Shown in pieces: positions 7,897 to 52,901 of a DNA stretch of 64,000 nt. Within the stretch, counting starts at the first letter, position 1, and each line of letters starts with the position of its first letter. Origin of the DNA: Escherichia phage 241; the sequence record OR924452; one strand, given 5' to 3'. The notes below the pieces were generated by a model. The model worked only from the letters and a program-made list of their open reading frames with translations, ran no database searches and was not told where the DNA came from. Made by a program: the position numbers and the translations under genes.

Positions 7897-8145
7897 ATGC
7901 GTGGAATGAAAGTACAGGGGCACGCATCCATGTTGAGAAGCAGTTCTTGTCCAGGCGCGATCATTTGTACTGATCATGCTGCAGGTATGGCTGCATTGCA
8001 AGCCCGTCAACGCAACGAAACCCGTGAAGCCACCATTGTTGAACAATCAAACCAGATATCGAATCTGGAGGCGACGATCAAAATGATGGCTGAAAAGTTG
8101 GGGATAGAAATCCCCGAAGGAGGTCAGAATGGCGACGCAAGCTGA
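7897..8145 (+). CDS. hypothetical protein (predicted coiled-coil)
   Basis: ATG at 7897 preceded by GAGGA; ORF track start at 7858 is GTG inside a hairpin. Confidence 0.4.
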   Translation: MRGMKVQGHASMLRSSSCPGAIICTDHAAGMAALQARQRNETREATIVEQSNQISNLEATIKMMAEKLGIEIPEGGQNGDAS

Positions 8146-8470
8146 AAGATCTGGGCTTGATATCCGTGGTATCTTGACTGCTGTCGTGGCTTCTGCATTG
8201 GTCTCGGCGGCGTCGTTCCTTTGGTTTATGGGTGGGATGGAAACACGCGTGAATGTATTGGAGCGAGATTCTAATAAAATGGATCAGGTCCTTCAAAAGG
8301 TGAATGACATGAGTGAGCGCATGGCGATCATGAATACAGACCTCGCATATGTCAAACAAAATATGGCTGAGTTAAAACTCAATAGCAGCAGCCTATCAGA
8401 CGATGTCCGCACATTGCGGATTACTGTATCTGATTTGCAGCAACGAGGGAATAACAATGGCCGTCAATAA
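8129..8470 (+). CDS. hypothetical membrane protein (single N-terminal TM helix plus coiled-coil)
   Basis: Hydrophobic stretch ILTAVVASALVSAASFLWF near N-terminus; overlaps neighbours by short ATGA-type junctions. Confidence 0.45.
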   Translation: MATQAERSGLDIRGILTAVVASALVSAASFLWFMGGMETRVNVLERDSNKMDQVLQKVNDMSERMAIMNTDLAYVKQNMAELKLNSSSLSDDVRTLRITVSDLQQRGNNNGRQ

Positions 8471-9209
8471 AATTCGCGACAAGAAATCTTTTATGAACTA
8501 TGTCTTGCGTAAATTGGGCGCTCCGGTCATCCAAATTAACCTTGACAGTTCACAAGTAGAAGATGCTGTTGATGATGCTCTACAGAAGTTTTGGGAATAT
8601 CATCGCGACGGTAGCCAAGATGCGTTCTTCCTGTACCAAGTTAAGCAAGAAGATATCGACAAGGGTTATATTGAATTCCCAGAAGATATTGACGATGTGA
8701 TTGAAGTTATCCCTGGACCTCCTATTGAGTCAATTGGAAACTGGGCAACTCCTCAATGGCAAATGGCCCAAGCCATGCTTGTACCAAAAGCGGCGCTTGT
8801 GTCTATTCGTCTCATTGATTACGTTTCCATGCAACAGCGCCTGTCTGATATCACAAGCGTCTTGAATGTTCGTCGTAATTTTGTGTACAAGAAGTTCCAG
8901 CGACGCCTTTACCCGCAATTTGCTGCCACCATTGATGAAACTCTGGCTTTCCGTTGTTATCAGAATATCGACCCCGAATCGGAAGAAAACGCTGAAGCAT
9001 GGAATGACATGTGGTTGAAAGCGTATGCGACTGCATTGGTTAAGCGCCGTTGGGCTGAGGTGCTTAAGAAGGCAAGAGGCATCCGTCTCCCAGGTGGTAT
9101 CGAACTGGATGGTGATAGTATGTTCAGTGAGGCCGAGACCGAGATAGAGCGGTTGGAGGAAGAATTGCGTACTGGTCAGCAATACCCTATCGATTTTATG
9201 ATGGGATAA
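8457..9209 (+). CDS. neck protein, T4 gp13-like
   Basis: N-terminal LRKLGAPVIQINLDSSQVEDAVDDAL resembles T4 gp13 LRRLGAPIINVELTPDQI; first gene of conserved 13-23 block. Confidence 0.75.
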   Translation: MAVNKIRDKKSFMNYVLRKLGAPVIQINLDSSQVEDAVDDALQKFWEYHRDGSQDAFFLYQVKQEDIDKGYIEFPEDIDDVIEVIPGPPIESIGNWATPQWQMAQAMLVPKAALVSIRLIDYVSMQQRLSDITSVLNVRRNFVYKKFQRRLYPQFAATIDETLAFRCYQNIDPESEENAEAWNDMWLKAYATALVKRRWAEVLKKARGIRLPGGIELDGDSMFSEAETEIERLEEELRTGQQYPIDFMMG

Positions 9210-9210
9210 G

Positions 9211-9240
9211 AGAAGGCGGGTTATCCCGCCTTTCTTTTTA
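9211..9240. terminator. bidirectional rho-independent terminator
   Basis: AAGGCGGG-TTAT-CCCGCCTT hairpin flanked by A-run and T-run, between convergent genes. Confidence 0.65.
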
Positions 9241-9450
9241 TAACTTGATGTCGCGGTCGGAAGGATTTGAATTTGCTAGAATATAACCATCAACCAAGTT
9301 CTTTTCATCCCACCATTCAATAAAATCATTTCCCTTTTCGTCTTTGATAAGACCCACAATGTTATATGAACCATCGGCGATTTTAGCGTCTACACAGATA
9401 ATTCTCACACGCCTTCCGTCACGAGTTTCTTTAATATCTTCAACCTTCAT
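9238..9450 (-). CDS. hypothetical protein (70 aa)
   Basis: Minus-strand ORF between genes 13 and 14, ends at the bidirectional terminator. Confidence 0.45.
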   Translation of the reverse strand: MKVEDIKETRDGRRVRIICVDAKIADGSYNIVGLIKDEKGNDFIEWWDEKNLVDGYILANSNPSDRDIKL

Positions 9451-9481
9451 TTATCAATTCCTCAAAAGAATTAATGATTGA

Positions 9482-9489
9482 CTAAATAC
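9482..9489 (+). promoter_or_regulatory. late-promoter-like motif CTAAATAC
   Basis: About 22 nt upstream of ATG 9512; followed by CTTCAAAATTGAG, also seen before the sheath gene. Confidence 0.5.
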
Positions 9490-9511
9490 CTTCAAAATTG
9501 AGGGTAAAGTC

Positions 9512-10153
9512 ATGGCTACTTCGAAATATTTCAATTATACAGCACACCAAGGTACTCAGAAATTAATTGACGACTTGGTGGTCGAGATGATACAACTACG
9601 TGGGATTGACGTCAAGTATATTCCACGTTCCATCGTTGAAAAATACCCAATTTTAAACGAGGCTGAACATAAATTCGACCAGGCGTTCGATATCGAAGTA
9701 TACATGCAAGATTACCAAGGCTTTAACACCCAAATGTGGGAGAAGTTTGGCGGTATTCAATTACAAGATGAAGTGACGTTCACCATTGCTCGTCGCCGTT
9801 TTTCAGAAGTGATTGGTAATGGGCCAGGACTTGAGCAGATGCCTCAAGAAGGTGATTTGATATACCTCCCAATGGCGAACAAGATATTCAAAGTGAATAA
9901 CCCGAATAACGACGAAGAATTTATGCAATTCGGTAAATGGTACACATATTCCTTACCGTGCACGTTGTTCCAATATGGTAATGAAGATTTTGATACTGGT
10001 GTATCTGAAATTGACGACATCGATAAACGTTTACAAGATCTAGACGGCGATGGTGTCTACAAAGATGCCAGTCTACAGACAGATAACCAATTTGCGGACG
10101 AAATAGAGAAAGATCTTTCGCCCAATAAAATGAAGATAGACTTCGGGGAATAA
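9512..10153 (+). CDS. neck protein, T4 gp14-like
   Basis: Position and size in conserved 13-14-15 order. Confidence 0.55.
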   Translation: MATSKYFNYTAHQGTQKLIDDLVVEMIQLRGIDVKYIPRSIVEKYPILNEAEHKFDQAFDIEVYMQDYQGFNTQMWEKFGGIQLQDEVTFTIARRRFSEVIGNGPGLEQMPQEGDLIYLPMANKIFKVNNPNNDEEFMQFGKWYTYSLPCTLFQYGNEDFDTGVSEIDDIDKRLQDLDGDGVYKDASLQTDNQFADEIEKDLSPNKMKIDFGE

Positions 10154-24881: not shown

Positions 24882-25304
24882 ATGAAGAAATATGTCGTGC
24901 TCATTACAGGTTCCCGCTCAATAACCGAGCGGGATAAAATCTTCGCCAAACTGGATGAACTGTTAGATCCCCACGAGATCGAAACTTTTATAGAAGGTGA
25001 AGCGGTTGGTGTGGACTTGATATCTCGTGATTGGTGTGAAATCAATTATGTCCATGTTACGCCAATGGGGATCCCTAAGGATTATCACACGATATATGGG
25101 AAAGGCGCAGGAAACCAACGTAACAAAGATATGTTAGACAAAGCTACAACCCTGGCCAAACAAAAAGGTCTTGAGGTCTTTGGAATTGCGTTATGGGATG
25201 GTTCGTCTACTGGGACGCAAGACATGATTACCCGCATGAAAAAAGCAGGAGTCAATGTCAATATCACTCTCATGGGCAAACCCAAAACCAAACGATTGTT
25301 ATAA
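24882..25304 (+). CDS. possible SLOG-family (LOG/DprA-like) nucleotide-binding protein
   Basis: N-terminal VVLITGSRS and GxxxGxD pattern suggest a Rossmann-like SLOG fold; weak. Confidence 0.35.
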   Translation: MKKYVVLITGSRSITERDKIFAKLDELLDPHEIETFIEGEAVGVDLISRDWCEINYVHVTPMGIPKDYHTIYGKGAGNQRNKDMLDKATTLAKQKGLEVFGIALWDGSSTGTQDMITRMKKAGVNVNITLMGKPKTKRLL

Positions 25305-25326
25305 ATATGTTTGCCTTCACACCCAT

Positions 25327-25509: not shown

Positions 25510-25540
25510 TTATAAATACCCCCAAAATTGGGGGTATTTT

Positions 25541-27945: not shown

Positions 27946-28691
27946 TGGTTTCTCTACAGGCTTTGCGCAAACTTAATGACTTTGAAAATCGTCATCATAC
28001 ATTTCAGCAATATTCCTTGCCGTTTAAGGAACTGACTTGCGTAACTACCGAAAATGGTCGTCACTATGTTTCTCCCACTGGAGTCAAACTAACTTCAGTG
28101 ACGACCATGTTAGGGCGTACTGGTGACCACACATGGTTAGAAGCCTGGCGGGACAAGTTGGGGCATGAAGCTGCTGATATAGAAACACATCGTTGCGCAG
28201 ACCGTGGGGAAAAACTTCATTTGGCTTGTGAGTTGTATCTCAAAAACAGACCAATGAAGGAAGTTCTGGAAGCTGCAGGGGAATACGTGTTTATGTTCAA
28301 ACAGGTTTTCCCCTACCTTAACAAAATGAGCAAGATATATGCACAAGAGATTCCATTATATAGCGAAGTCCTGGGTCTTGCTGGTCGTGTTGACCTTATC
28401 GGGGTTTACGAAGGAATTCCAAGCATAATCGATTTCAAAACATCCAACACCCTGAAAACTCGGAGCATGATAGAAGATTACAGCATTCAACTATGCCTGT
28501 ACTCAGTCATGTTTCAACAGATGTTTAATGTTAAGATCGAACGTTTGGTCAATATTATATCTAATGAAAATTCTCTTGTCCCGACTATAATCGAATTTAA
28601 TCGAAAAGACGTTATTTCTAAAATGTTTGATCGTGTTCGCCTGTATCATAAAATGGATAAAGAACAGAACGGGATCTGGGCGGATCGCTAA
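27945..28691 (+). CDS. PD-(D/E)xK family nuclease (Cas4/RecB-like fold)
   Basis: GRVDLIG...IIDFKTS matches the D...(D/E)xK core; ATG 27945 overlaps uvsY stop (TAATG). Confidence 0.5.
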   Translation: MVSLQALRKLNDFENRHHTFQQYSLPFKELTCVTTENGRHYVSPTGVKLTSVTTMLGRTGDHTWLEAWRDKLGHEAADIETHRCADRGEKLHLACELYLKNRPMKEVLEAAGEYVFMFKQVFPYLNKMSKIYAQEIPLYSEVLGLAGRVDLIGVYEGIPSIIDFKTSNTLKTRSMIEDYSIQLCLYSVMFQQMFNVKIERLVNIISNENSLVPTIIEFNRKDVISKMFDRVRLYHKMDKEQNGIWADR

Positions 28692-28695
28692 ATAC
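28688..28695 (+). promoter_or_regulatory. late-promoter-like motif CTAAATAC
   Basis: About 25 nt upstream of uvsW ATG 28720 (uvsW is a late gene in T4). Confidence 0.45.
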
Positions 28696-28719
28696 TCCAT
28701 AATATTGGGGGAATTAGTG

Positions 28720-30225
28720 ATGTCAGAAATTCAAATAATCAAAGTTAACGAAGTGCGCATGCGAATCTTGGCGGAGGACTATATCCGCGAAGAACTCAAT
28801 GATTACTTCAAATTTGAAGATCCTAATTTCCAACCGAATCCCTTCAGTAAATGGGATGGCGTGGTACGCTTGTTCACAAAGAGTTCTGGTCTTATAGACA
28901 TCGGTCTGTTGTTTGAGGTGTTTAAGTTCTGTAAGATGAATGGTTACACCATCAAATTAGATCCCGCCTTAAAATATATCCAAGATATACCAGACGAAGA
29001 GATACATACATTTATCAATTCCCTGAACGCTGTTTACCGTGATGAAAACAAGCAATACCAAATCGCAACAGTGCGGGACTATCAATTCGACTCAGTGGCC
29101 ACAGCAATACGCCAATCCAGATGCGTGCTAGAAGCGGCTACGAGCGCGGGTAAATCGTTTATTTTGTACATCATGGCGCGTTACTACAGGCAACGCAGAG
29201 AGGCACTGGAAAGCAATCTCAAGACGTTGATCGTTGTACCTTCCATTCACTTGGTGACTCAGTTGTATGACAACTTTGAGGAATACAGCCATGGCACAAA
29301 TTGGAATACCATGATGAATGTCCAGATGATATGTGAAGGCGCAACAAAGGACATATTCAAGCCCATAGTCATTTCTACATGGCAGGGTATTCAGAATCAG
29401 CCCAAAGAATGGTTCCATCAATTTGGGGATATTGTTGTCGACGAAGTACACACATCTAAATCTGAAAAGCTATCTTATATCCTGAACAACTGCATTAATG
29501 CTGACCAAAGATTGGGAGTAACCGGAACCCTCGCGAATACAAAGGTTGCAGGGTTGCAGGTCGTTGCCCATTTTGGAGCATACCATAAAATTATTACAGC
29601 ACGTGATTTAATAAATCTTGGTTATGCCACAGATATCCATGTCAACATGATTGAAGTCATACATCCCATGGCGGATTGTATAGAAATGCATGGTGCTGAG
29701 TATCAAAAGGAAATAGAATTCCTCATAGCGAATGAACGTCGAAACGAGTTAATAGCCAGAATGGCATTGTCTTTGAAAGGTAACGTGGCCGTTATGTTCG
29801 AACGCATTGACGCCCATATGATGATTGTTTATGAAATGCTTTCAGCCGTTAAGAAAAACGTATTTGTCATTAACGGCGAAGTTAAGACAGAAGTTCGTAA
29901 ACAAATTCAGGCAGCGATGGAAGAGGGTGAAGATATAACACTGCTGGCATCTTATGGGACCATGCAACAGGGAGTGTCGATCAAAAAACTTCATCATTTG
30001 ATATTGGCACACCCGAGTAAATCCTATATCCGTGTCATACAGACTTTAGGGCGTCTCATGCGCCAGCACTCTTCAAAGGATGTCGCCAAGATCTGGGATT
30101 TAGTAGACAACTTGCGTTACAATGGATTCTCGTACAACCATGCTCTCAGACATTCGCATGAGAGATATAAATTTTATCTTATGGAGCGACACCCTGTACA
30201 AATGAAGAAAGTGTCGCTCCAGTAA
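28720..30225 (+). CDS. uvsW: ATP-dependent DNA helicase UvsW
   Basis: EAATSAGKSF Walker A, IVVDEVH Walker B; VISTWQGIQNQPKEWFHQFG matches T4 UvsW VVGTWQTVVKQPKEWFSQFG; 501 aa from ATG 28720. Confidence 0.9.
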   Translation: MSEIQIIKVNEVRMRILAEDYIREELNDYFKFEDPNFQPNPFSKWDGVVRLFTKSSGLIDIGLLFEVFKFCKMNGYTIKLDPALKYIQDIPDEEIHTFINSLNAVYRDENKQYQIATVRDYQFDSVATAIRQSRCVLEAATSAGKSFILYIMARYYRQRREALESNLKTLIVVPSIHLVTQLYDNFEEYSHGTNWNTMMNVQMICEGATKDIFKPIVISTWQGIQNQPKEWFHQFGDIVVDEVHTSKSEKLSYILNNCINADQRLGVTGTLANTKVAGLQVVAHFGAYHKIITARDLINLGYATDIHVNMIEVIHPMADCIEMHGAEYQKEIEFLIANERRNELIARMALSLKGNVAVMFERIDAHMMIVYEMLSAVKKNVFVINGEVKTEVRKQIQAAMEEGEDITLLASYGTMQQGVSIKKLHHLILAHPSKSYIRVIQTLGRLMRQHSSKDVAKIWDLVDNLRYNGFSYNHALRHSHERYKFYLMERHPVQMKKVSLQ

Positions 30226-34468: not shown

Positions 34469-34497
34469 AACAGAGGCTATAATGGCCTCTGTTTTTG
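34469..34497 (+). terminator. rho-independent terminator
   Basis: CAGAGGC-TATAATG-GCCTCTG hairpin followed by TTTTTG. Confidence 0.6.
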
Positions 34498-34515
34498 TAT
34501 TCTAGAGAGGATACC

Positions 34516-35739
34516 ATGAAAGATAAACCGTGTGACATTCCTTATTGCGGTGTTCGGGAAACCAAAATTAAATCTGCACACCCCACGTTAAGTCCATTCC
34601 ATAAACAACTCGCATACGAATGGATGAGTGAGCGCTATAAGATCCACGTGAGAAAGGACGTCCAACGTCTTCCTGCTCCTTGGACGGATAATCCCATACT
34701 ACGGCAGGTCAAGTTCTGTAACGTCCGGAGAGAGCACGACAGGCAGTCTCTTAACCTGATCAACAATATCGTCAAGAACGATGCTCTGGGCATGGCCGAC
34801 AAGATGTTCAACTGTGTTCTGTTCCGCATGTTCAACCTCTGGGACCCGATCAAGGCTATCGGTGACGCTCGTACTATCAAAGAGTTCGCAAACATCGATC
34901 TTGATGCAACCCGCAAAAGTCTTCAGGAATTTGAGGCCAACGGTGGTAAGATCTTCACCAATGCCTTCAACACAGGCGGTCTAAAGCAGTGTCTGGCGTT
35001 CCCCGAACTCGTTGTCAACCACAAGGAGCAGCGCTTTGGTGGTATGATGGTTAAGGTACACCGTGTTGGCCAGGGTATCGTTGATGAATTGGATTACAAG
35101 GTCGCCAAGAAGCTGGTTGAAGAAAATCCTGGGGAGTACACGATCGAGGGCTGGGAGCCGTACATGCCGATGCGTGTTATCCGTTCCCTGAAGGCATTTG
35201 TCAACAAGTATCCTGATTATTTCAATGATCTTTTACGTCTTGACTCTCCGCTGAAAGTTTACCAGCGCATGTATGACGACATTGAAGGGCTTGGGCCATT
35301 CCTGGCATATCAGATATGGGTGGACTTCACATACATCCCTGAGTATCCATTCAGTGAGAATCACTTCACCATCGCTGGCCCAGGTTGCCGTGCGGGTATT
35401 GACCTGATGTTCCTGGATAAGGACGGTATGACTCATGAAGAGTGCATCTTCTGGGTTCGAGATCACCAGTATCAATTGTTTGCCCAGTATGGTTATGTCC
35501 AAGAGCAGTTCTGGTCAGCCGAAGCGCCGGAAGATCAGTGCATGAATGTCATGCAGCTGGAGAACATGTTCTGTGAATTGAGCAAGTACACCCGCTGTGT
35601 TGAGGCTATTGAGAGAGGGGAAAAGCCACGCGGCAAGGTCGGTTACGATGGAGGCGGAGAATACAAAAAGCGGTGCGATGAAGTTGTCCTTAAACGCGGT
35701 TCCGTCAATTTGTTAGATCGTTTGAAGAAACCTGAATAA
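34516..35739 (+). CDS. hypothetical protein (407 aa), Cys-rich
   Basis: ATG 34516 with GAGAGGATA RBS; no family assignable by inspection. Confidence 0.5.
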   Translation: MKDKPCDIPYCGVRETKIKSAHPTLSPFHKQLAYEWMSERYKIHVRKDVQRLPAPWTDNPILRQVKFCNVRREHDRQSLNLINNIVKNDALGMADKMFNCVLFRMFNLWDPIKAIGDARTIKEFANIDLDATRKSLQEFEANGGKIFTNAFNTGGLKQCLAFPELVVNHKEQRFGGMMVKVHRVGQGIVDELDYKVAKKLVEENPGEYTIEGWEPYMPMRVIRSLKAFVNKYPDYFNDLLRLDSPLKVYQRMYDDIEGLGPFLAYQIWVDFTYIPEYPFSENHFTIAGPGCRAGIDLMFLDKDGMTHEECIFWVRDHQYQLFAQYGYVQEQFWSAEAPEDQCMNVMQLENMFCELSKYTRCVEAIERGEKPRGKVGYDGGGEYKKRCDEVVLKRGSVNLLDRLKKPE

Positions 35740-47579: not shown

Positions 47580-47785
47580 TCGGGTTAATCCGTTATCTGT
47601 TCATATTCGTAATTTCAACATTCATTTTATTTTTCTTTTTCAAATACTTGAAAGAGACTAAAATCTACCGAAGTAAACGTTGGCGCAAACGGGTGAGGGT
47701 AACTTTCCTGCTGCTGATTTCTTCGGTTACAATAACCGCACTCACATTGGGTGCATATATCTACATTTTTGAAGGGATACATTGA
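47567..47785 (+). CDS. small membrane protein (two predicted TM helices)
   Basis: Hydrophobic segments IGLIRYLFIFVISTFILFFFF and VTFLLLISSVTITALTLGAYIYIF. Confidence 0.4.
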   Translation: MGNMIGLIRYLFIFVISTFILFFFFKYLKETKIYRSKRWRKRVRVTFLLLISSVTITALTLGAYIYIFEGIH

Positions 47786-48576
47786 TGTTCAAGAAATTGG
47801 TGTTCGGTGCAATTATGGTTCTGGCTGCAAGTCTACTTTCTGGTTGTGGTGGCGTTATCGATGAAGGTAATGTCGGCGTTCGCACCCAATGGGGTGAAGT
47901 AGACATGAACCCTGTAACAGCGGGGATCTACACCAGCTTTGTTTCAAGCGTGGATGTTTACACGACCAAAGAAGCCGTTGTGAGTCTGACTAAAATGACG
48001 CCAAAGGCCAAAGACAACCTGACTCTGGAAGACTTGGATGTGGATGTTTATTACACACCCAATGTCGCAAAGGTTCCGTGGTTCCATACCAAATTTGCTG
48101 GCCAGAGCGCTGAACTCGATGATGGCACGATAGCGGTGGGTTTCAATCTAGTTAAAACTGCTGCAGCATCTTCTTCGATGGACGCCGTTTCTTCTCTTGA
48201 TTCTATGACAATCCACACCCAACGTGCTGAATTAGAGAAGATGATTAAAGACCGCACTCAGCAACAATTAGAGACTGCAGCGCCTGGCATGTTCACAATC
48301 ACACGCGTGTTGGTCAAAAAGGCGCTGACGGATCCTTCTATTGAGCAGTCTATCCGTGATAATGTTATGGCGGACAAACGATTGGATACGGCAAGAAAGA
48401 ACGTTGAAATTCGCGAGCAAGAAGCCCAAGCGAACCAGAAACTGACCACTTCGCTGACGCCTGAATATCTTCAACATGAATATAACATGGTATTACAATC
48501 ATGTGCCAACAGTGGAAAATGTACTCTGATCGTTGACGGATCCGGCTCAGGTAAAATGCTGAACGTCGGCAAATAA
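47782..48576 (+). CDS. SPFH/band-7-like lipoprotein
   Basis: Signal with lipobox LLSGC; beta-rich N-region followed by helical Ala/Gln/Glu-rich region, reminiscent of SPFH domains. Confidence 0.45.
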   Translation: MMFKKLVFGAIMVLAASLLSGCGGVIDEGNVGVRTQWGEVDMNPVTAGIYTSFVSSVDVYTTKEAVVSLTKMTPKAKDNLTLEDLDVDVYYTPNVAKVPWFHTKFAGQSAELDDGTIAVGFNLVKTAAASSSMDAVSSLDSMTIHTQRAELEKMIKDRTQQQLETAAPGMFTITRVLVKKALTDPSIEQSIRDNVMADKRLDTARKNVEIREQEAQANQKLTTSLTPEYLQHEYNMVLQSCANSGKCTLIVDGSGSGKMLNVGK

Positions 48577-48659
48577 ACGCTTTATTCAATAATATTTGTT
48601 AGGTAAGCTGTAGTCCTCTTGTAGTGAAACATTGTAAACAACTAACTGGAGTAATCCGA

Positions 48660-48938
48660 ATGAACCGTACTGATTTTATCGCTCACATCGCCCAGACTCA
48701 GGGTATGACCAAAGGCGAAGCAGAGAAGATCGTGGCATCTTTTATCAACGGCGTAAAAACTGCAGTCGCAGCTGGCCAATCTGTCCAATTCGTCGGCTTC
48801 GGCGCGTTTGAAGTTAAACATCAGGAAGCGCGCACTGGCCGCAACCCGCTGAACGGGCAAGCGATTCAGATCGAAGCGAAAAATGTTGTTAAATTCAAAG
48901 TCGGTGAAGGTCTGAAAGCTGCTGCCAACGGCCAGTAA
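48660..48938 (+). CDS. HU-like histone-like DNA-binding protein
   Basis: QFVGFGAFEVKHQEARTGRNPLNGQAIQIEAKNVVKFKVG matches HU/IHF [39 protein letters not shown]. Confidence 0.85.
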   Translation: MNRTDFIAHIAQTQGMTKGEAEKIVASFINGVKTAVAAGQSVQFVGFGAFEVKHQEARTGRNPLNGQAIQIEAKNVVKFKVGEGLKAAANGQ

Positions 48939-48988
48939 TCACATCCAGAGCGGTCGTGCCTAGCACAGCGTGTTAGGCTAAAAGAGAA

Positions 48989-49016
48989 AGCCGAGGTTAA
49001 TGCCTCGGCTTTTTCG
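48989..49016 (+). terminator. rho-independent terminator
   Basis: AGCCGAGG-TTAATG-CCTCGGCT hairpin followed by TTTT. Confidence 0.7.
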
Positions 49017-49063
49017 TTGTTGGAATTCGGGTAAACTATAACAGAACCCAAAGGAGGAACAAC

Positions 49064-50785
49064 GTGACAGCATTTAATCAATACCGAAAGGCAATTGACG
49101 CCATAGGCCGTAAGGTTCCTATAGAAGAAATACAAAGCCTTGCCAAAAACGAATTTCCATATGACAAGGCGAACCAAGGCCAGATGGAATGTATCGTCGA
49201 AGCCGTTGATGCCTTGGTCAACAAAAAGGTCAAACACGTGATCATTGAAGCCCCAACTGGCGTGGGGAAATCTTTGATTGGGACAACAATTCATAAAGTG
49301 ATTCGCCATTTGGTTTTACAGGCCGATCCTTATGGGCAATTCCGCACGTCTATCAGTACGCCCACCAAAGGTCTACAAGATCAGTATGCTGCTGAAAAGG
49401 CGGTGGCGATAGACATCCTGAAAGGCAAGAAGAACTATCGTTGCCACGTACACCCAGATGTGTATTACAACGCCGTGCAATGCCGTATAGCATGCCGCGA
49501 CGGGCATTGTAGCAAACGCCGTTGTCCTTATGTACAGGCGCGCAATTTATGGACTGATATTTCGTCATTGCGTTGCACTAATGCAGCTATGATGATTGAG
49601 ATGTGCACCACCATCTGTATGAAGCCTGAAAACCGTTCCGATATGCTGATCTTAGACGAGTGTCATAAGATGCCCTCTACGCTCCTAGAGCACACGATAA
49701 TGGAATACAATACAAAGGCTGTGGATGGGCTGCGAACTATCCCCGAAGGGAAGGAGATAGTCTCTATCATTGCCGATATCGTAGAACGCACCAAGGACTA
49801 TGTCTTGGGCAAGTTGTATTCCTTGTCCGGTGAAATGCATTCGATGTTTGAAGACCTCCATCTTAAAGTGGAGTCTTTGTTGGAAGTTCTTGAAGAATTG
49901 GTTGAAGATGACCGCCTGAGTGAAAGCCAGGTGATGAAACTCGCCGACATTATCGATGTACTACACAATCTGAGTGATTATTGTGGTATTATGTCTCAGA
50001 CAAAGGCCAGCACCTTTATCGTACAGGAAAAGGGAGATGACTTTATTCGGTTTAAACCCGTCATGCCTTCTGATGTAAGTGAATTTGGATTGTTCAGGAA
50101 AGCCGATTACCATGTTCATATGTCGGCAACAATCTGCGGAATCGATTCATATGCCCGTTCCTTGGGTATCCGCCAGGGGGATTATCATTCAATACAGATT
50201 GGAAATCCAATCCCAATTGAAAATCGGAAAGTCAACTATATGCCCATCGTTAAGATGACCAACAACATGGGCGATTATGAAATGAAAAGGCTGACGGAAT
50301 ACATTGATGAAATAATCGCATTCCATCCAGGGCAATCTGGCATCATACATACAGTGAGCTATGATCGCGCATTAGCAATACAAAAATTCAGCAAATACCA
50401 GAACTTTATCCATGTGCCACGCACCCGAAAGGCGTTGATGGATATTATGGAAAATGCCTTCAGGACAAAAACACCTTGTGTTATTGCCAGTCCGGCCATG
50501 GAAGAAGGATATGACTTCAAAGGTGATTACAGCCGATTCCAAATACTGATCAAAGTTCCTTACGATTATTTGGGTGATCCATTGATCGCACATATTAATT
50601 CAGTGGATCCGTCTGCGTACTTCCGCAACGCAGTATTGCGCATTGTTCAGATGTGCGGACGTTCGGTCAGGGGTGTGGATGACTGGGCTGCAACATACAT
50701 AATCGATTCTTCCTTTGAATCTCTTATGATGCGCAACCCAGAGTTCTTCCCAACCTGGTTCACCGATGCAGTATTTGAAGTTTAA
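49064..50785 (+). CDS. DinG/XPD-like superfamily 2 helicase with Cys-rich (putative Fe-S) insertion
   Basis: Walker A IIEAPTGVGKS, DEAH-type box LILDECHKM, Cys cluster CHVHPDVYYNAVQCRIACRDGHCSKRRCPY between them; GTG start with AAAGGAGG RBS. Confidence 0.65.
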   Translation: MTAFNQYRKAIDAIGRKVPIEEIQSLAKNEFPYDKANQGQMECIVEAVDALVNKKVKHVIIEAPTGVGKSLIGTTIHKVIRHLVLQADPYGQFRTSISTPTKGLQDQYAAEKAVAIDILKGKKNYRCHVHPDVYYNAVQCRIACRDGHCSKRRCPYVQARNLWTDISSLRCTNAAMMIEMCTTICMKPENRSDMLILDECHKMPSTLLEHTIMEYNTKAVDGLRTIPEGKEIVSIIADIVERTKDYVLGKLYSLSGEMHSMFEDLHLKVESLLEVLEELVEDDRLSESQVMKLADIIDVLHNLSDYCGIMSQTKASTFIVQEKGDDFIRFKPVMPSDVSEFGLFRKADYHVHMSATICGIDSYARSLGIRQGDYHSIQIGNPIPIENRKVNYMPIVKMTNNMGDYEMKRLTEYIDEIIAFHPGQSGIIHTVSYDRALAIQKFSKYQNFIHVPRTRKALMDIMENAFRTKTPCVIASPAMEEGYDFKGDYSRFQILIKVPYDYLGDPLIAHINSVDPSAYFRNAVLRIVQMCGRSVRGVDDWAATYIIDSSFESLMMRNPEFFPTWFTDAVFEV

Positions 50786-51549
50786 TAACCTGCAATAAAC
50801 GATAAATGGCACTTGATATTTGGTTCAAGTGTCGTTATCGTGATGATCATATTATCCACATCTTGGCTGAAAGATATATTTGCTATTGGTTTAGTCTGAA
50901 CGTGGTTGTACAGGCTGTATATCAAATCTTCACCACGGTATCCGACTTTACCATCAGTATCCTGCCAATGGCCTAACGTGGATTCATGAGCATGTACTCG
51001 GAATTCTATCATATGGAACAATGCTTTTGGGATTGTTTTCAGTATGCTGGTTCCGACAACAGGGATATCAATAGCAGAGTCGTTGGAATTGCCCTCATAT
51101 ACTGACGCCCAACCAAATGTTGGATCTCCCCCCGCTACTGGAGTTCTCTTCCAGTATTGGAATTCCGGATTTCCAGCAGCATTCTTTTGTAGAAGGATAA
51201 CTTCACCGCCTTCAAAATTAGAAGTGTCTATATCATCACGTGCTAATAAATCAGCTGGAGAACCAATAAATTTCCAGGTTTCGCGATCTAAAATAGACTT
51301 ATAATAATCGGTGAATACGTTACTGTCGTCAGCTGCGTTGATTGCGTCTTTAAGACCTTCACCTGTGACCATCTCATTGAGTTTTAGCCACATGTTTTTG
51401 ACAGCTGACGCAGCTGCGACTTGACCTTCAGTCCCACCCGCCGTGTAGTCATAAACGATGTCCAGCTTTTGTATGGAATCATTTATAGACAAGAGCAAAC
51501 GCTCAATTTCTGGGGCGGTCAGACTGAAACGATATGCGCGTTCTGACAT
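50782..51549 (-). CDS. hypothetical protein (255 aa, minus strand)
   Basis: Opposite-strand ORF between helicase and RNase H genes. Confidence 0.45.
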   Translation of the reverse strand: MSERAYRFSLTAPEIERLLLSINDSIQKLDIVYDYTAGGTEGQVAAASAVKNMWLKLNEMVTGEGLKDAINAADDSNVFTDYYKSILDRETWKFIGSPADLLARDDIDTSNFEGGEVILLQKNAAGNPEFQYWKRTPVAGGDPTFGWASVYEGNSNDSAIDIPVVGTSILKTIPKALFHMIEFRVHAHESTLGHWQDTDGKVGYRGEDLIYSLYNHVQTKPIANISFSQDVDNMIITITTLEPNIKCHLSFIAGY

Positions 51550-51591: not shown

Positions 51592-52119
51592 ATGATTGAA
51601 ATATACACTGACGGGGCATCTTCCCCGCAGAAGACACAAGCCGCAGGTTGGGCATTTGCTATCAGTCCAATCACTGGAGAGCAATGGAAAGTGTTTTATG
51701 GGTATTTACCCCCACCGTCAACGAATAATATCGCTGAGTTGCTTGGGGTTATAAATGCCTTGAAGATTCTATGGAAATTCTCTAATTGCGGGGAACGCTG
51801 TATTCCCTCAGCCCGTATTATATCCGACAGCCAATATGTTATCAATAGTGTTTTGGAGTGGCGTAGAAAATGGGAATATGAAGGGATGCCGCCTAAGAAC
51901 ACAGAACTCCTACTCGAATTGTTCAATTATTATGACAAAGTTTGTTCAATTTGTGAACTTGAATTAAAATGGGTGAAAGGTCATGCGGGGAATATCGGCA
52001 ACGAAATCGCAGATCAGTGGAGCGTCAGAGCCAAAGAAAATAGCTCGATGGTTCTTGAAAATAATCGTTTTCTGGTCAGAAAGGTTGTTGGTTCTTTCAA
52101 TGAATTCATTGGTATTTGA
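51592..52119 (+). CDS. ribonuclease H (RNase HI family)
   Basis: IYTDGAS...GWAF...NNIAEL...ISDSQYVIN...KGHAGNIGNEIADQWS match RNase HI catalytic blocks; ATG 51592. Confidence 0.8.
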   Translation: MIEIYTDGASSPQKTQAAGWAFAISPITGEQWKVFYGYLPPPSTNNIAELLGVINALKILWKFSNCGERCIPSARIISDSQYVINSVLEWRRKWEYEGMPPKNTELLLELFNYYDKVCSICELELKWVKGHAGNIGNEIADQWSVRAKENSSMVLENNRFLVRKVVGSFNEFIGI

Positions 52120-52130
52120 GGATTATCACG

Positions 52131-52901
52131 ATGGGTATGAATTTTGTAGACAGGGGTGATAACGTCACCAAATATTTCACTGACGAAGATAATGATCGAG
52201 TTGTGGGGATATTGCGTGATTGGATCCCTGCTCGTAAAAAGGCATTAGCCGAAGGAACACCCCTACCAAGAATCCCCAATTACGTGGCCATGAATGTTCA
52301 GATGATAATCAAGAATATGAGTATGCGCTACAACTACCGTGATTATCCATATCGTGAAGACATGGTGAGTGAAGCGGTTGTGAACATCCTTCGTTACCTT
52401 CACACCTTTGACGTTAGCCATATCGGCAAGAAAGGAAAGATCAACTTCTTCTCTTGGGTGACTATGTGTGCCGATCGATCATTCGCCAAGAAACTCACGA
52501 GTGAAGAAGAACACAACTACATTAAATTGCGTTCCTTTGAAGAAGCAGGTGGGTTCGCAGCTTTATCGGATGACCCAGACTTCCAACAACAAACCTTCGT
52601 TGATAGCACTGGGATAACGATGGACTTTCGTGAACGCATCGGTAATTTCGAAAATAAGAAAGAAGCCCAGCGTGAAAAGGAACGCCAAAAGCAAACGGCT
52701 ATCAAAGAAGAGGAAAAGAATAAGAAAATCCCTCGCGGTATACTTCAATGTCTTACGAAGAGTGAAAATACCATTACCGCTGACGCCGAAGATAATTCAG
52801 ATAATGACTTCGGCTCTACTCAATTTAGTCTTGAAGATATAATGGACAGCCCCACATTGTTAGCCGAATCAGTTGGAGAAAAGAATAATGGCGATTGCTA
52901 A
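52131..52901 (+). CDS. late-transcription sigma factor, T4 gp55-like
   Basis: ILRDW, NILRYLHTFD and NFFSWVTMCADRSFAKKL parallel T4 gp55 IIDWKTEL, IKGLHNFD, AYITQACFNAFVQRIKKE; upstream of genes 47/46 as in T4. Confidence 0.6.
   Translation: MGMNFVDRGDNVTKYFTDEDNDRVVGILRDWIPARKKALAEGTPLPRIPNYVAMNVQMIIKNMSMRYNYRDYPYREDMVSEAVVNILRYLHTFDVSHIGKKGKINFFSWVTMCADRSFAKKLTSEEEHNYIKLRSFEEAGGFAALSDDPDFQQQTFVDSTGITMDFRERIGNFENKKEAQREKERQKQTAIKEEEKNKKIPRGILQCLTKSENTITADAEDNSDNDFGSTQFSLEDIMDSPTLLAESVGEKNNGDC

Follow-up and report, generated by a model that had tools for sequence, protein, structure and literature searches.

The gene at positions 49064..50785 on the plus strand of the window (the whole 64,000-nucleotide stretch of DNA analysed here) very probably encodes a conserved DNA helicase of Ackermannviridae phages that belongs to the XPD/DinG (Rad3-like, SF2) superfamily, that would bind a [4Fe-4S] cluster through a 28-residue four-cysteine module, and that would serve the T4-type replication and recombination machinery as an accessory helicase. 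The window derives from the genome of a Vi01/CBA120-like phage, a Kuttervirus of the family Ackermannviridae. The gene itself is an ordinary one, already known and labelled as a helicase in public records: more than 200 phage records contain genes 99.9% identical to it under the annotation "DNA helicase" or "ATP-dependent helicase", YP_009101579.1 of phage ECML-4 being one example, and the window copy is typical of the Kuttervirus members of the PHROG 2488 clade. Genome announcements list the gene merely as a 'putative ATP-dependent helicase' (PMC10892097), the CBA120 paper speaks of 'helicases' in general terms only (PMC3184105), and a 2025 review on bacterial DinG-like proteins does not cover the phage clade (PMC11981726). 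A full-text search of the literature returned no study on the Kuttervirus helicase, its clade, phage XPD/DinG Fe-S helicases or the timing of Kuttervirus transcripts.

The coding sequence and its upstream region

The coding sequence, as read from the DNA, is an uninterrupted open reading frame of 573 codons that begins with GTG and ends with TAA. It is preceded on the same strand by the Shine-Dalgarno sequence AAAGGAGG at 49050..49057, which is separated from the start codon by a 6-nt spacer and is found with the same letters in phage ECML-4. The GTG at 49064 is the sole canonical start between the upstream in-frame stop, which ends at 49000, and codon 41, and it is required because the conserved Q-motif residues F31, P32, G39 and Q40 of the family precede Met41; the GTG start is a feature of the lineage. 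A chance reading frame is excluded by the match to PHROG 2488 (E=4.7e-265, 881.8 bits, protein residues 19-573 against profile positions 2-579 of 579) and by the hundreds of homologues. The reading frame, the GTG start and the strong ribosome-binding site, all of which had been proposed in a preliminary description of this DNA, are thus confirmed as genuine.

Between the gene of an HU-like protein (48624-48938) and the helicase gene, the plus strand holds a G+C-rich hairpin, AAAGCCGAGG-loop-CCTCGGCTTT, followed by a T-tract (48987..49012), which by its sequence is a probable intrinsic terminator. The helicase gene therefore likely has a promoter of its own or depends on read-through. In the promoter search, sigma-70-like sites occurred at chance frequency and none was convincingly positioned 5′ of the helicase gene, while the T4 late-promoter motif TATAAATA was likewise found at chance frequency across the 64-kb window.

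Helicase motifs

The set of ATPase and helicase motifs is complete and comprises the Q motif, Walker A, DECH, SAT and QxxGRxxR elements, all encoded on the plus strand, whose conservation was scored both on 42 homologues (alignment A1) and on 133 full-length cluster representatives. The Q-motif region, FPY...GQ (residues 31-40; 49154..49183), aligns with the 'FPY..P.Q' element of Rad3/XPD. Among the 42 homologues F31, G39 and Q40 do not vary, and P32 is conserved to at least 90%; in the cluster representatives F31 is found in 119/133, P32 in 120/133 and Q40 in 130/133, with G39 variable at 50/133. Walker A, or motif I, reads GVGKS (residues 66-70; 49259..49273), with G66, G68 and K69 invariant. 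Motif II is a DExH box with the sequence DECH (residues 198-201; 49655..49666), in which D198, E199 and H201 are invariant and the position 200 is occupied by either cysteine or alanine in the relatives.

The motif III region, HMSATI (residues 352-357; 50117..50134), contains the SAT triplet at residues 354-356. Its T356 is invariant in the 42 homologues, where H352, M353, S354, A355 and I357 are conserved to at least 90%, and the triplet is retained in most of the 133 cluster representatives (S354 in 129, A355 in 114 and T356 in 127). Motif VI, QxxGRxxRG, is present as QMCGRSVRG (residues 529-537; 50648-50674) inside the C-terminal RecA-like domain, and Q529, G532, R533 and R536 occur in all 133 cluster representatives.

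Superfamily placement and predicted structure

Membership in the XPD/DinG superfamily, as claimed in the preliminary description, is supported by sequence profiles and by the AlphaFold model. The C-terminal RecA-like domain (residues 465-566; 50456..50761, plus strand) matches Pfam Helicase_C_2 (PF13307) with E=6.9e-12 and 46.2 bits against a cut-off of 25.3, and the same profile is matched by all 42 relatives. Of the two Pfam families that had been suggested for a profile search, this is the one that was found; DEAD_2 (PF06733) gave no match in the helicase protein even at E<=1, and only weak matches in 6 of the 42 relatives (best E 2e-5). The miss is likely due to the shortened Fe-S region and is treated here as a limit of profile sensitivity rather than as a sign of another fold. 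Pfam HBB, at E=0.033, is not a significant match of the helicase protein.

A profile built from the 42 homologues matches E. coli DinG with 1.2e-19 and XPD, Rad3, Chl1 and FANCJ with 1e-11 to 1e-10, residues ~120-290 of the helicase being aligned with DinG 192-358. The best NCBIfam matches, although weak, are likewise DinG, YoaA, DinG-related and Rad3 models. The scores lie far below the cut-offs of the DinG equivalog NF008729 (60.5 bits against 598), the YoaA equivalog NF053712 (53.9 against 680) and the XPD/Rad3 subfamily TIGR00604 (26.8 against 246.95, with only the C-terminal ~90 residues covered), and the protein is not an equivalog of DinG, YoaA, XPD or CasDinG. At E<=1e-30 and with clustering at 50% identity the homologues form 4366 clusters, mostly of 520-600 residues, and fold matches within the viral clade in BFVD range from 1e-48 to 1e-33. 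The members of the PHROG 2488 clade come from Ackermannviridae, Kleczkowskaviridae, Hafunaviridae and many uncultured phages.

The AlphaFold model of the protein (pLDDT 89.5, pTM 0.88) displays an XPD/DinG fold with an Arch-like insertion. Its best 44 PDB matches are all XPD, DinG, CasDinG, Chl1 or Hna structures with TM-scores of 0.55-0.67, the top match being DinG 6fwr with E=3.1e-25, whereas RecQ scores no better than 1e-9. Between motifs II and III the model contains a mainly helical insertion that, as the full-length structural matches to DinG and XPD and the profile alignment with DinG indicate, is equivalent to the Arch domain (approximately residues 205-345; 49676..50098, plus strand) and includes the long helices 256-280 and 287-312.

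The four-cysteine module

The preliminary description noted a cysteine-rich insertion between Walker A and a DEAH box. The segment indeed holds eight cysteines (127, 140, 144, 149, 154, 171, 181 and 185), four of which are invariant, although the box is DECH. These four, C127, C140, C149 and C154, form a compact module in helicase domain 1 (residues 127-154; 49442..49525, plus strand) with the spacing C-X12-C-X8-C-X4-CPY. They are conserved without exception in the 42 homologues, down to 32% identity, and are also retained in the proteins of Vibrio, Aeromonas, Acinetobacter and Rhizobium (31.8%) phages and of a Halorubrum virus (27.8%). Among the full-length cluster representatives at least four cysteines are found in the segment in 123/133, while 9/133 have three only.

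Three of the four cysteines coincide with known ligands: C127, C149 and C154 align with the [4Fe-4S] ligands C120, C199 and C205 of DinG and with C108, C173 and C179 of YoaA, and Rad3 C191 and XPD C190 are included in the alignment as well. To this extent the suggested alignment of cysteine spacings bears out the likeness; it does so less for the second ligand, where the conserved residue is C140 and not the DinG-like C144. The latter would reproduce the C-X4-C spacing of DinG and aligns with DinG C194 and YoaA C168. Since C144 is kept in only 13 of the 42 homologues and C140 is invariant, C144 is the less likely ligand. The four-cysteine module is common to the PHROG 2488 clade and the window copy, and C144 is a lineage-specific feature of the latter. 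The four cysteines are therefore predicted, from the alignments, to form a [4Fe-4S] site where XPD and DinG have their iron-sulfur domain. The distance from the first cysteine to the last is 28 residues, which is also the family-wide median, compared with 72 in YoaA and 86 in DinG, so that most of what separates ligands 1 and 2 in the canonical Fe-S domain is missing. The pLDDT values of 80-88 around the module are the lowest of the model.

The shortness of the module relative to those of YoaA and DinG leaves room for a different geometry, and the cysteines might accordingly bind a structural zinc or form no cluster at all, as a metal knuckle shrunken from an Fe-S domain in a protein of the same fold and helicase activity. 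The unmatched DEAD_2 profile, which spans the Fe-S region, would fit such a reading, as would CasDinG, which shows that the superfamily tolerates a vestigial Fe-S domain (PMC10450177; PMC11981726). However, the CxxC pairs typical of zinc knuckles and ribbons are absent, three of the four cysteines occupy proven ligand positions of DinG, YoaA and XPD, including the GxxNYxC and C-X4-CPY contexts, and vestigial domains such as that of CasDinG lack the cysteines that are invariant here; we consider zinc binding or the loss of the cluster unlikely. Far more improbable still, to the point of being practically untenable, is that the protein belongs to some other SF2 family (UvsW/RecG-like, RecQ, type III restriction Res or SNF2) and that its cysteines are incidental. 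Pfam ResIII (27 bits) and DEAD (23.7 bits) do match the Walker A region, but these matches cover residues 38-111 only and amount to the general likeness among P-loop proteins, the C-terminal domain is of the Helicase_C_2 and not the Helicase_C type, and a true UvsW homologue is encoded elsewhere in the window. Together with the exclusively XPD/DinG-type top structural matches, the Pfam and profile results refute this assignment. Neither of the two outcomes that the preliminary description named as refuting its reading, cysteines that vary among homologues or membership in a different SF2 family, was therefore observed.

Genomic context and proposed role

In the window the helicase gene is surrounded by a replication and recombination module with genes for the HU-like protein, RNase HI, gp55, gp47 and gp46. 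In the relatives the gene lies in the same module or in one like it, close to genes for the clamp, clamp loader, dexA, primase, ligase or PolA. Kuttervirus shares the order helicase, one opposite-strand gene, RNase HI, gp55 late sigma factor and gp47/gp46 with a Vibrio phage that has a 46% identical helicase. In an Acinetobacter relative from the Ackermannviridae the helicase gene directly follows dexA, and in T4 the dda gene lies two small genes away from dexA. The contig of one distant homologue is jumbo-phage-like and carries the anti-defence genes Tad3 and Acb3 close to the homologue.

The T4-like replication context seen in the preliminary description holds as far as the T4-type core genes are concerned, but the phage belongs to the Ackermannviridae and is no relative of T4 in the narrow sense. 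The same description regarded the helicase as an "extra" enzyme beyond Dda, UvsW and gp41, which has to be revised. The UvsW homologue is encoded separately, at 28627-30225 in the window, and a gp41-type helicase and its loader are encoded elsewhere in the genome, outside the window, whereas Dda was undetectable: when T4 Dda was searched by tblastn against the window together with the remainder of a Kuttervirus genome, no hit was better than E=0.35 and none lay in the helicase reading frame. With gp41 and UvsW present and no detectable Dda, the helicase probably fills the 5′-3′ accessory role rather than being an extra enzyme.

In the proposed mechanism, C127, C140, C149 and C154 would hold the [4Fe-4S] cluster, which would stabilise a small domain; this domain and the Arch domain may jointly form the passage for ssDNA and the strand-separating wedge. 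The enzyme would be driven by ATP along single-stranded DNA in the 5′→3′ direction, a polarity that is assumed from its family. As an accessory helicase of the T4-type replication and recombination machinery it may clear R-loops, proteins or branched intermediates. The accessory-helicase niche is held by Dda in T4 and by DinG and YoaA in E. coli, and it is only from the absence of Dda and the gene neighbourhood that we infer a Dda-like or DinG-like role for the phage protein.

A narrower function has some chance of being correct, although a rather small one, namely that the helicase is no general substitute for Dda and teams specifically with the neighbouring RNase HI against RNA-DNA hybrids, such as R-loops and primers, and replication-transcription collisions. 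E. coli DinG, which is the nearest solved structure and also gives the top profile match, unwinds R-loops and has been proposed to resolve collisions of this kind, and the gene arrangement is kept between Kuttervirus and the Vibrio phage; the relatives from Aeromonas, Acinetobacter and Rhizobium phages and from the Halorubrum virus, however, do not show the linkage to RNase HI. A partnership with RNase HI overlaps with the accessory role proposed above rather than excluding it. A defence or CRISPR-related DinG of the CasDinG/Csf4 type, or a counter-defence factor, in place of a replication enzyme was considered for the best PADLOC match, 'typeIV_DinG, CAS-IV-A associated' (E=3.4e-50, 169 bits, full length), and the one distant homologue next to Tad3 and Acb3 could point in the same direction. 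That PADLOC model is generic-looking, though, and the Csf4-specific PADLOC models reach at most 24 bits, while NCBIfam cas_csf4 (TIGR03117) scores 12.2 bits against a cut-off of 400. All four cysteines are kept here, whereas CasDinG lacks the ligands (PMC11981726), and the neighbours are replication and recombination genes, with no csf genes among the annotated or scanned genes around the helicase. The weak Csf4 scores, the retained cysteines and the gene context speak against such a role, whose probability we regard as very low.

With the accessory replication helicase as the preferred reading, a wider picture can be put forward tentatively. The phage protein might represent a large, essentially virus-specific clade of minimal XPD/DinG helicases (~4,400 clusters) with the Fe-S domain cut to a 28-residue C-X12-C-X8-C-X4-C module, which has possibly displaced the SF1B helicase Dda in the T4-type replisome of the Ackermannviridae and could make replication and recombination dependent on the host Isc/Suf systems and iron supply. 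If the cluster is real, the module would rank among the smallest Fe-S modules that occur naturally in the XPD family and offer a handy minimal model for cluster function in the XPD, FANCJ and DinG enzymes, and phage replication would be tied to host iron-sulfur metabolism. More immediately, the label "DNA helicase" of a gene found in all Ackermannviridae genomes examined can be improved to "XPD/DinG-family helicase, probable Fe-S", and the analysis bears on the replisome make-up of such T4-related phages, which have gp41 and UvsW but not Dda. Several Ackermannviridae phages serve, or have been suggested, as biocontrol agents against Salmonella, E. coli O157 and Dickeya; the practical value of the finding is nevertheless modest, and it will not surprise specialists.

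Comparison with known helicases

E. coli DinG (PDB 6fwr/6fws), a 5′-3′ Fe-S helicase, shares with the phage protein the order of the motifs, the Arch-like helical insertion and the Helicase_C_2 domain. The identity between the two is nevertheless only about 15-16%, and DinG is larger (716 against 573 residues), has its cysteines spread over 86 instead of 28 residues, with 4 residues instead of 8 between the second and third ligands, and carries DEGH in place of DECH in motif II. The phage helicase is also a viral and not an SOS gene, unlike DinG. YoaA, an XPD/Rad3-like Fe-S helicase of E. coli that partners the Pol III chi subunit, resembles the phage protein in its superfamily architecture and in the three aligned cysteines but differs in its longer cysteine span, and no evident homologous chi/HolC partner is encoded next to the phage gene. 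YoaA has an accessory helicase function when replication forks run into trouble (PMC9826845).

T4 Dda can be regarded as a functional analogue only. It belongs to SF1B and not SF2, has no sequence similarity to the phage helicase and lacks a metal cluster, and the presumed equivalence concerns the niche of a non-replicative 5′-3′ helicase. The proximity to dexA is a further likeness, seen as direct adjacency to the helicase gene in one Ackermannviridae phage and at a distance of two small genes from dda in T4.

CasDinG (Csf4, type IV-A) and the cyanobacterial sDinG are of the same superfamily and similarly compact, with structural matches to the model at ~1e-19. The Fe-S domain is vestigial and without ligands in CasDinG and absent from sDinG (PMC11981726), whereas the phage protein has its four invariant cysteines and no CRISPR context. 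XPD/Rad3 proteins, such as the Thermoplasma XPD (9p55/4a15) and human XPD in TFIIH, match the fold of the model with E=5e-24 to 1e-19 and have two sequence features in common with the phage protein, FPY...Q near the N-terminus and CPY(F/V) around the fourth ligand; in contrast to XPD, the phage protein has a much smaller Fe-S domain and no TFIIH or NER context. Distant relatives of the phage helicase in haloarchaeal viruses are labelled 'Rad3-related DNA helicase'.

Family assignment and gene structure

The protein encoded at 49064-50785 on the plus strand of Escherichia phage 241 is a member of the XPD/DinG superfamily, yet it belongs to no characterised subfamily, a placement that follows from Pfam, NCBIfam, profile and structure comparisons. 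Of the two Pfam domains by which the preliminary description proposed to recognise the family, Helicase_C_2 exceeds its cut-off and DEAD_2 gives no match; generic ResIII and DEAD matches extend across the P-loop, and HBB is faint. The best NCBIfam matches (DinG, YoaA, the DinG-related exonuclease-helicase and Rad3) all fall far under their equivalog cut-offs. A profile built from an alignment of 42 homologues, reaching down to 32% identity, matches E. coli DinG at 1.2e-19 and Rad3, XPD, Chl1, FANCJ and archaeal XPD at 1e-12 to 1e-9. The AlphaFold2 model built on the same alignment is confident (mean pLDDT 89.5, pTM 0.88), and every one of its best 44 PDB matches is of the XPD/DinG family, led by DinG (6fwr, 3.1e-25) and Thermoplasma XPD (5.5e-24) and followed by CasDinG, Chl1, TFIIH-XPD and Hna; RecQ is the next family, first appearing at about 1e-9. 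The original classification as an XPD/DinG-type SF2 helicase is thus borne out by the Helicase_C_2, profile and structural matches, and the Pfam, PDB and profile matches likewise rule out another SF2 family. Between motifs II and III, at about aa 205-345, the model places a largely helical insertion which corresponds to the Arch domain.

The ORF comprises 573 uninterrupted codons from a GTG start, with AAAGGAGG (49050-49057, plus strand) six bases 5′ of it. GTG 49064 is the only canonical start in the stretch from an in-frame stop, which ends at 49000, to codon 41, and since F31, G39 and Q40 are invariant and P32 is at least 90% conserved among the aligned homologues, all four preceding Met41, it is the correct one. 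The ORF, GTG start and upstream ribosome-binding site first proposed are therefore confirmed, and the helicase record of phage ECML-4 is annotated from the same GTG. Walker A reads GVGKS (aa 66-70), eight cysteines lie between it and motif II, and the latter is DECH (aa 198-201) rather than the DEAH box claimed before.

A compact four-cysteine module

The cysteine-rich insertion noted at the outset is conserved. Exactly four of its cysteines, C127, C140, C149 and C154, are invariant in the alignment, forming the pattern GKxNYxC-X12-C-X8-C-X4-C(P)Y over 28 aa, and C144 is lineage-specific, occurring in only 13 of the 42 sequences. Helicases sharing 27.8-46.4% identity, from phages of Vibrio, Aeromonas, Acinetobacter and Rhizobium and from a Halorubrum virus, retain all four. 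Among 133 full-length cluster representatives, 123 have at least four cysteines in the segment and nine have three, with a median cysteine span of 28 residues. Given this invariance and these counts, the refutation named in the preliminary description, cysteines not conserved in homologues, fails.

E. coli DinG and YoaA were aligned to the same profile. The DinG cysteines C120, C194, C199 and C205 (span 86 aa), the established cluster ligands of that enzyme, with which the alignment numbering agrees, and YoaA C108, C168, C173 and C179 (72 aa) match three of the four positions, as DinG C120/C199/C205 and YoaA C108/C173/C179 align with C127/C149/C154. In contrast, DinG C194 and YoaA C168 align with the non-conserved C144, four residues past the invariant C140. 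C154 further aligns with Rad3 C191 and human XPD C190. We regard the module as a compacted form of the XPD/DinG Fe-S domain. Its ligand positions match and it has no CxxC pairs, for which reasons a cluster is the preferred interpretation: the module probably binds [4Fe-4S], and binding of zinc, or of no cluster, is improbable.

Likely role and gene neighbourhood

The helicase had been regarded as extra to Dda, UvsW and gp41 of T4. A UvsW-type gene (28627-30225, plus strand; Pfam UvsW_N, ResIII and Helicase_C), the second non-replicative helicase gene of the window, is present, and a gp41-type helicase and a gp59-type loader are encoded in the rest of a Kuttervirus genome, but tblastn detects no homologue of T4 Dda in the window and the remaining 100 kb (Sajous1 loci L002 and L003; best E=0.35), so that the helicase is not an addition to the T4 trio. 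It more probably fills the accessory 5′-3′ niche of Dda in T4 and of DinG/YoaA in E. coli, where it would remove R-loops or protein roadblocks and process recombination intermediates. Family membership and gene neighbourhood suggest this role, the 5′-3′ polarity and a wedge function of the cysteine module. A 5-hmdU DNA kinase gene (34495-35739, plus strand; PF18723, E=2.7e-83) is a signature of the pathway by which ViI-like phages hypermodify thymidine, and the helicase would accordingly act on hypermodified DNA.

Beyond a convergent gene downstream lie genes for RNase HI, a gp55-type late sigma factor and the gp47/gp46 (SbcCD-like) recombination nuclease, and a Vibrio phage with a helicase of 46% identity shows this order too. 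A less probable reading, an R-loop function specific to partnership with RNase HI, overlaps with the accessory role. The linkage of the two genes is kept only in Kuttervirus and Vibrio phages; in other relatives the helicase gene is found beside the clamp and clamp loader, directly after dexA, or amid ligase, primase, exonuclease and PolA, and two metagenomic homologues likewise reside in phage-like contigs. A CRISPR- or defence-type DinG is contradicted by this genomic context, despite a match of aa 24-553 (49133-50722) to PADLOC PDLC01439 ('typeIV_DinG, CAS-IV-A associated', 575 positions; 169 bits, 3.4e-50). That model is probably a generic DinG profile, the Csf4-specific models score weakly and far poorer, and the ligand cysteines kept here have been lost from CasDinG, which is devoid of cluster ligands (PMC11981726).

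The convergent gene (50782-51549), alone on the minus strand here, encodes 255 aa of PHROG 3833 without a Pfam domain; its stop codon overlaps that of the helicase in TTAA (50782-50785), and no terminator separates the two genes. It is labelled a structural protein in several records, and Vibrio phage K474 has the same inverted gene between helicase and RNase HI. Immediately upstream of the helicase is an HU-family DNA-binding protein gene (48624-48938), followed by a hairpin with a 10-bp stem and flanking T/A runs on both strands (48987-49012), a possible bidirectional terminator. Further upstream, an SPFH/Band 7 lipoprotein gene (47782-48576, plus strand; PF01145, PHROG 200) adjoins lysis and superinfection-exclusion genes as annotated in ECML-4. 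The gp55-like ORF (52116-52901, plus strand, 261 aa) begins at 52131 in the ECML-4 annotation; only its aa 17-204 are covered by the PHROG profile, and the remaining C-terminal extension, charged and about 55 aa long, runs into the first part of the gp47-like gene. Despite this gp55-type late sigma factor, the 64 kb contain just two exact copies of the T4 late-promoter motif TATAAATA (25300-25307 and 25511-25518), which is chance level; these phages may use a late-promoter consensus other than that of T4.

Distribution and relation to earlier records

The gene is 99.7-99.9% identical in DNA to those of Salmonella and Escherichia phages of the Vi01/CBA120/ECML-4 group (genus Kuttervirus, family Ackermannviridae), whose records label it 'DNA helicase' or 'ATP-dependent helicase'. 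The T4-like replication context first described is fair in a broad sense only, since, according to the CBA120 genome paper (PMC3184105), ViI-like phages possess 38 of the 39 T4-superfamily core genes; the phage itself is a Kuttervirus. By tblastn, homologues occur in 497 phage records, among them every sampled lineage of Ackermannviridae (Kuttervirus, Limestonevirus, Klebsiella and Serratia phages, Tedavirus and one Acinetobacter member), phages of Vibrio and of Rhizobium (the latter Kleczkowskaviridae) and haloarchaeal Hafunaviridae, the last annotated 'Rad3-related DNA helicase'. The protein matches PHROG 2488 ('DNA helicase') at E=4.7e-265, and among 1.84 billion cluster representatives 4366 clusters match at E<=1e-30, mostly of 520-600 aa.

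Public records, PHROG and BFVD already contain the gene, with its annotation as a helicase and its 'Rad3-related/DinG' affinity, and the finding as a whole is known and ordinary; the preliminary description is supported with the corrections made here. A literature search found no biochemical study of any family member, and a 2025 review of DinG-like proteins treats bacterial subgroups only (PMC11981726). Just two points are mildly new, the very compact family-wide four-cysteine module and the absence of Dda. A distant homologue is also found in a jumbo-phage-like contig (GCA_902725575.1, 262 kb; genes around 8001-9614), neighboured by DUF2828/DUF7788, Tad3, Acb3, S-AdoMet lyase and Thg1 and lying near two IS605 OrfB/Cas12f-like (TnpB) genes.
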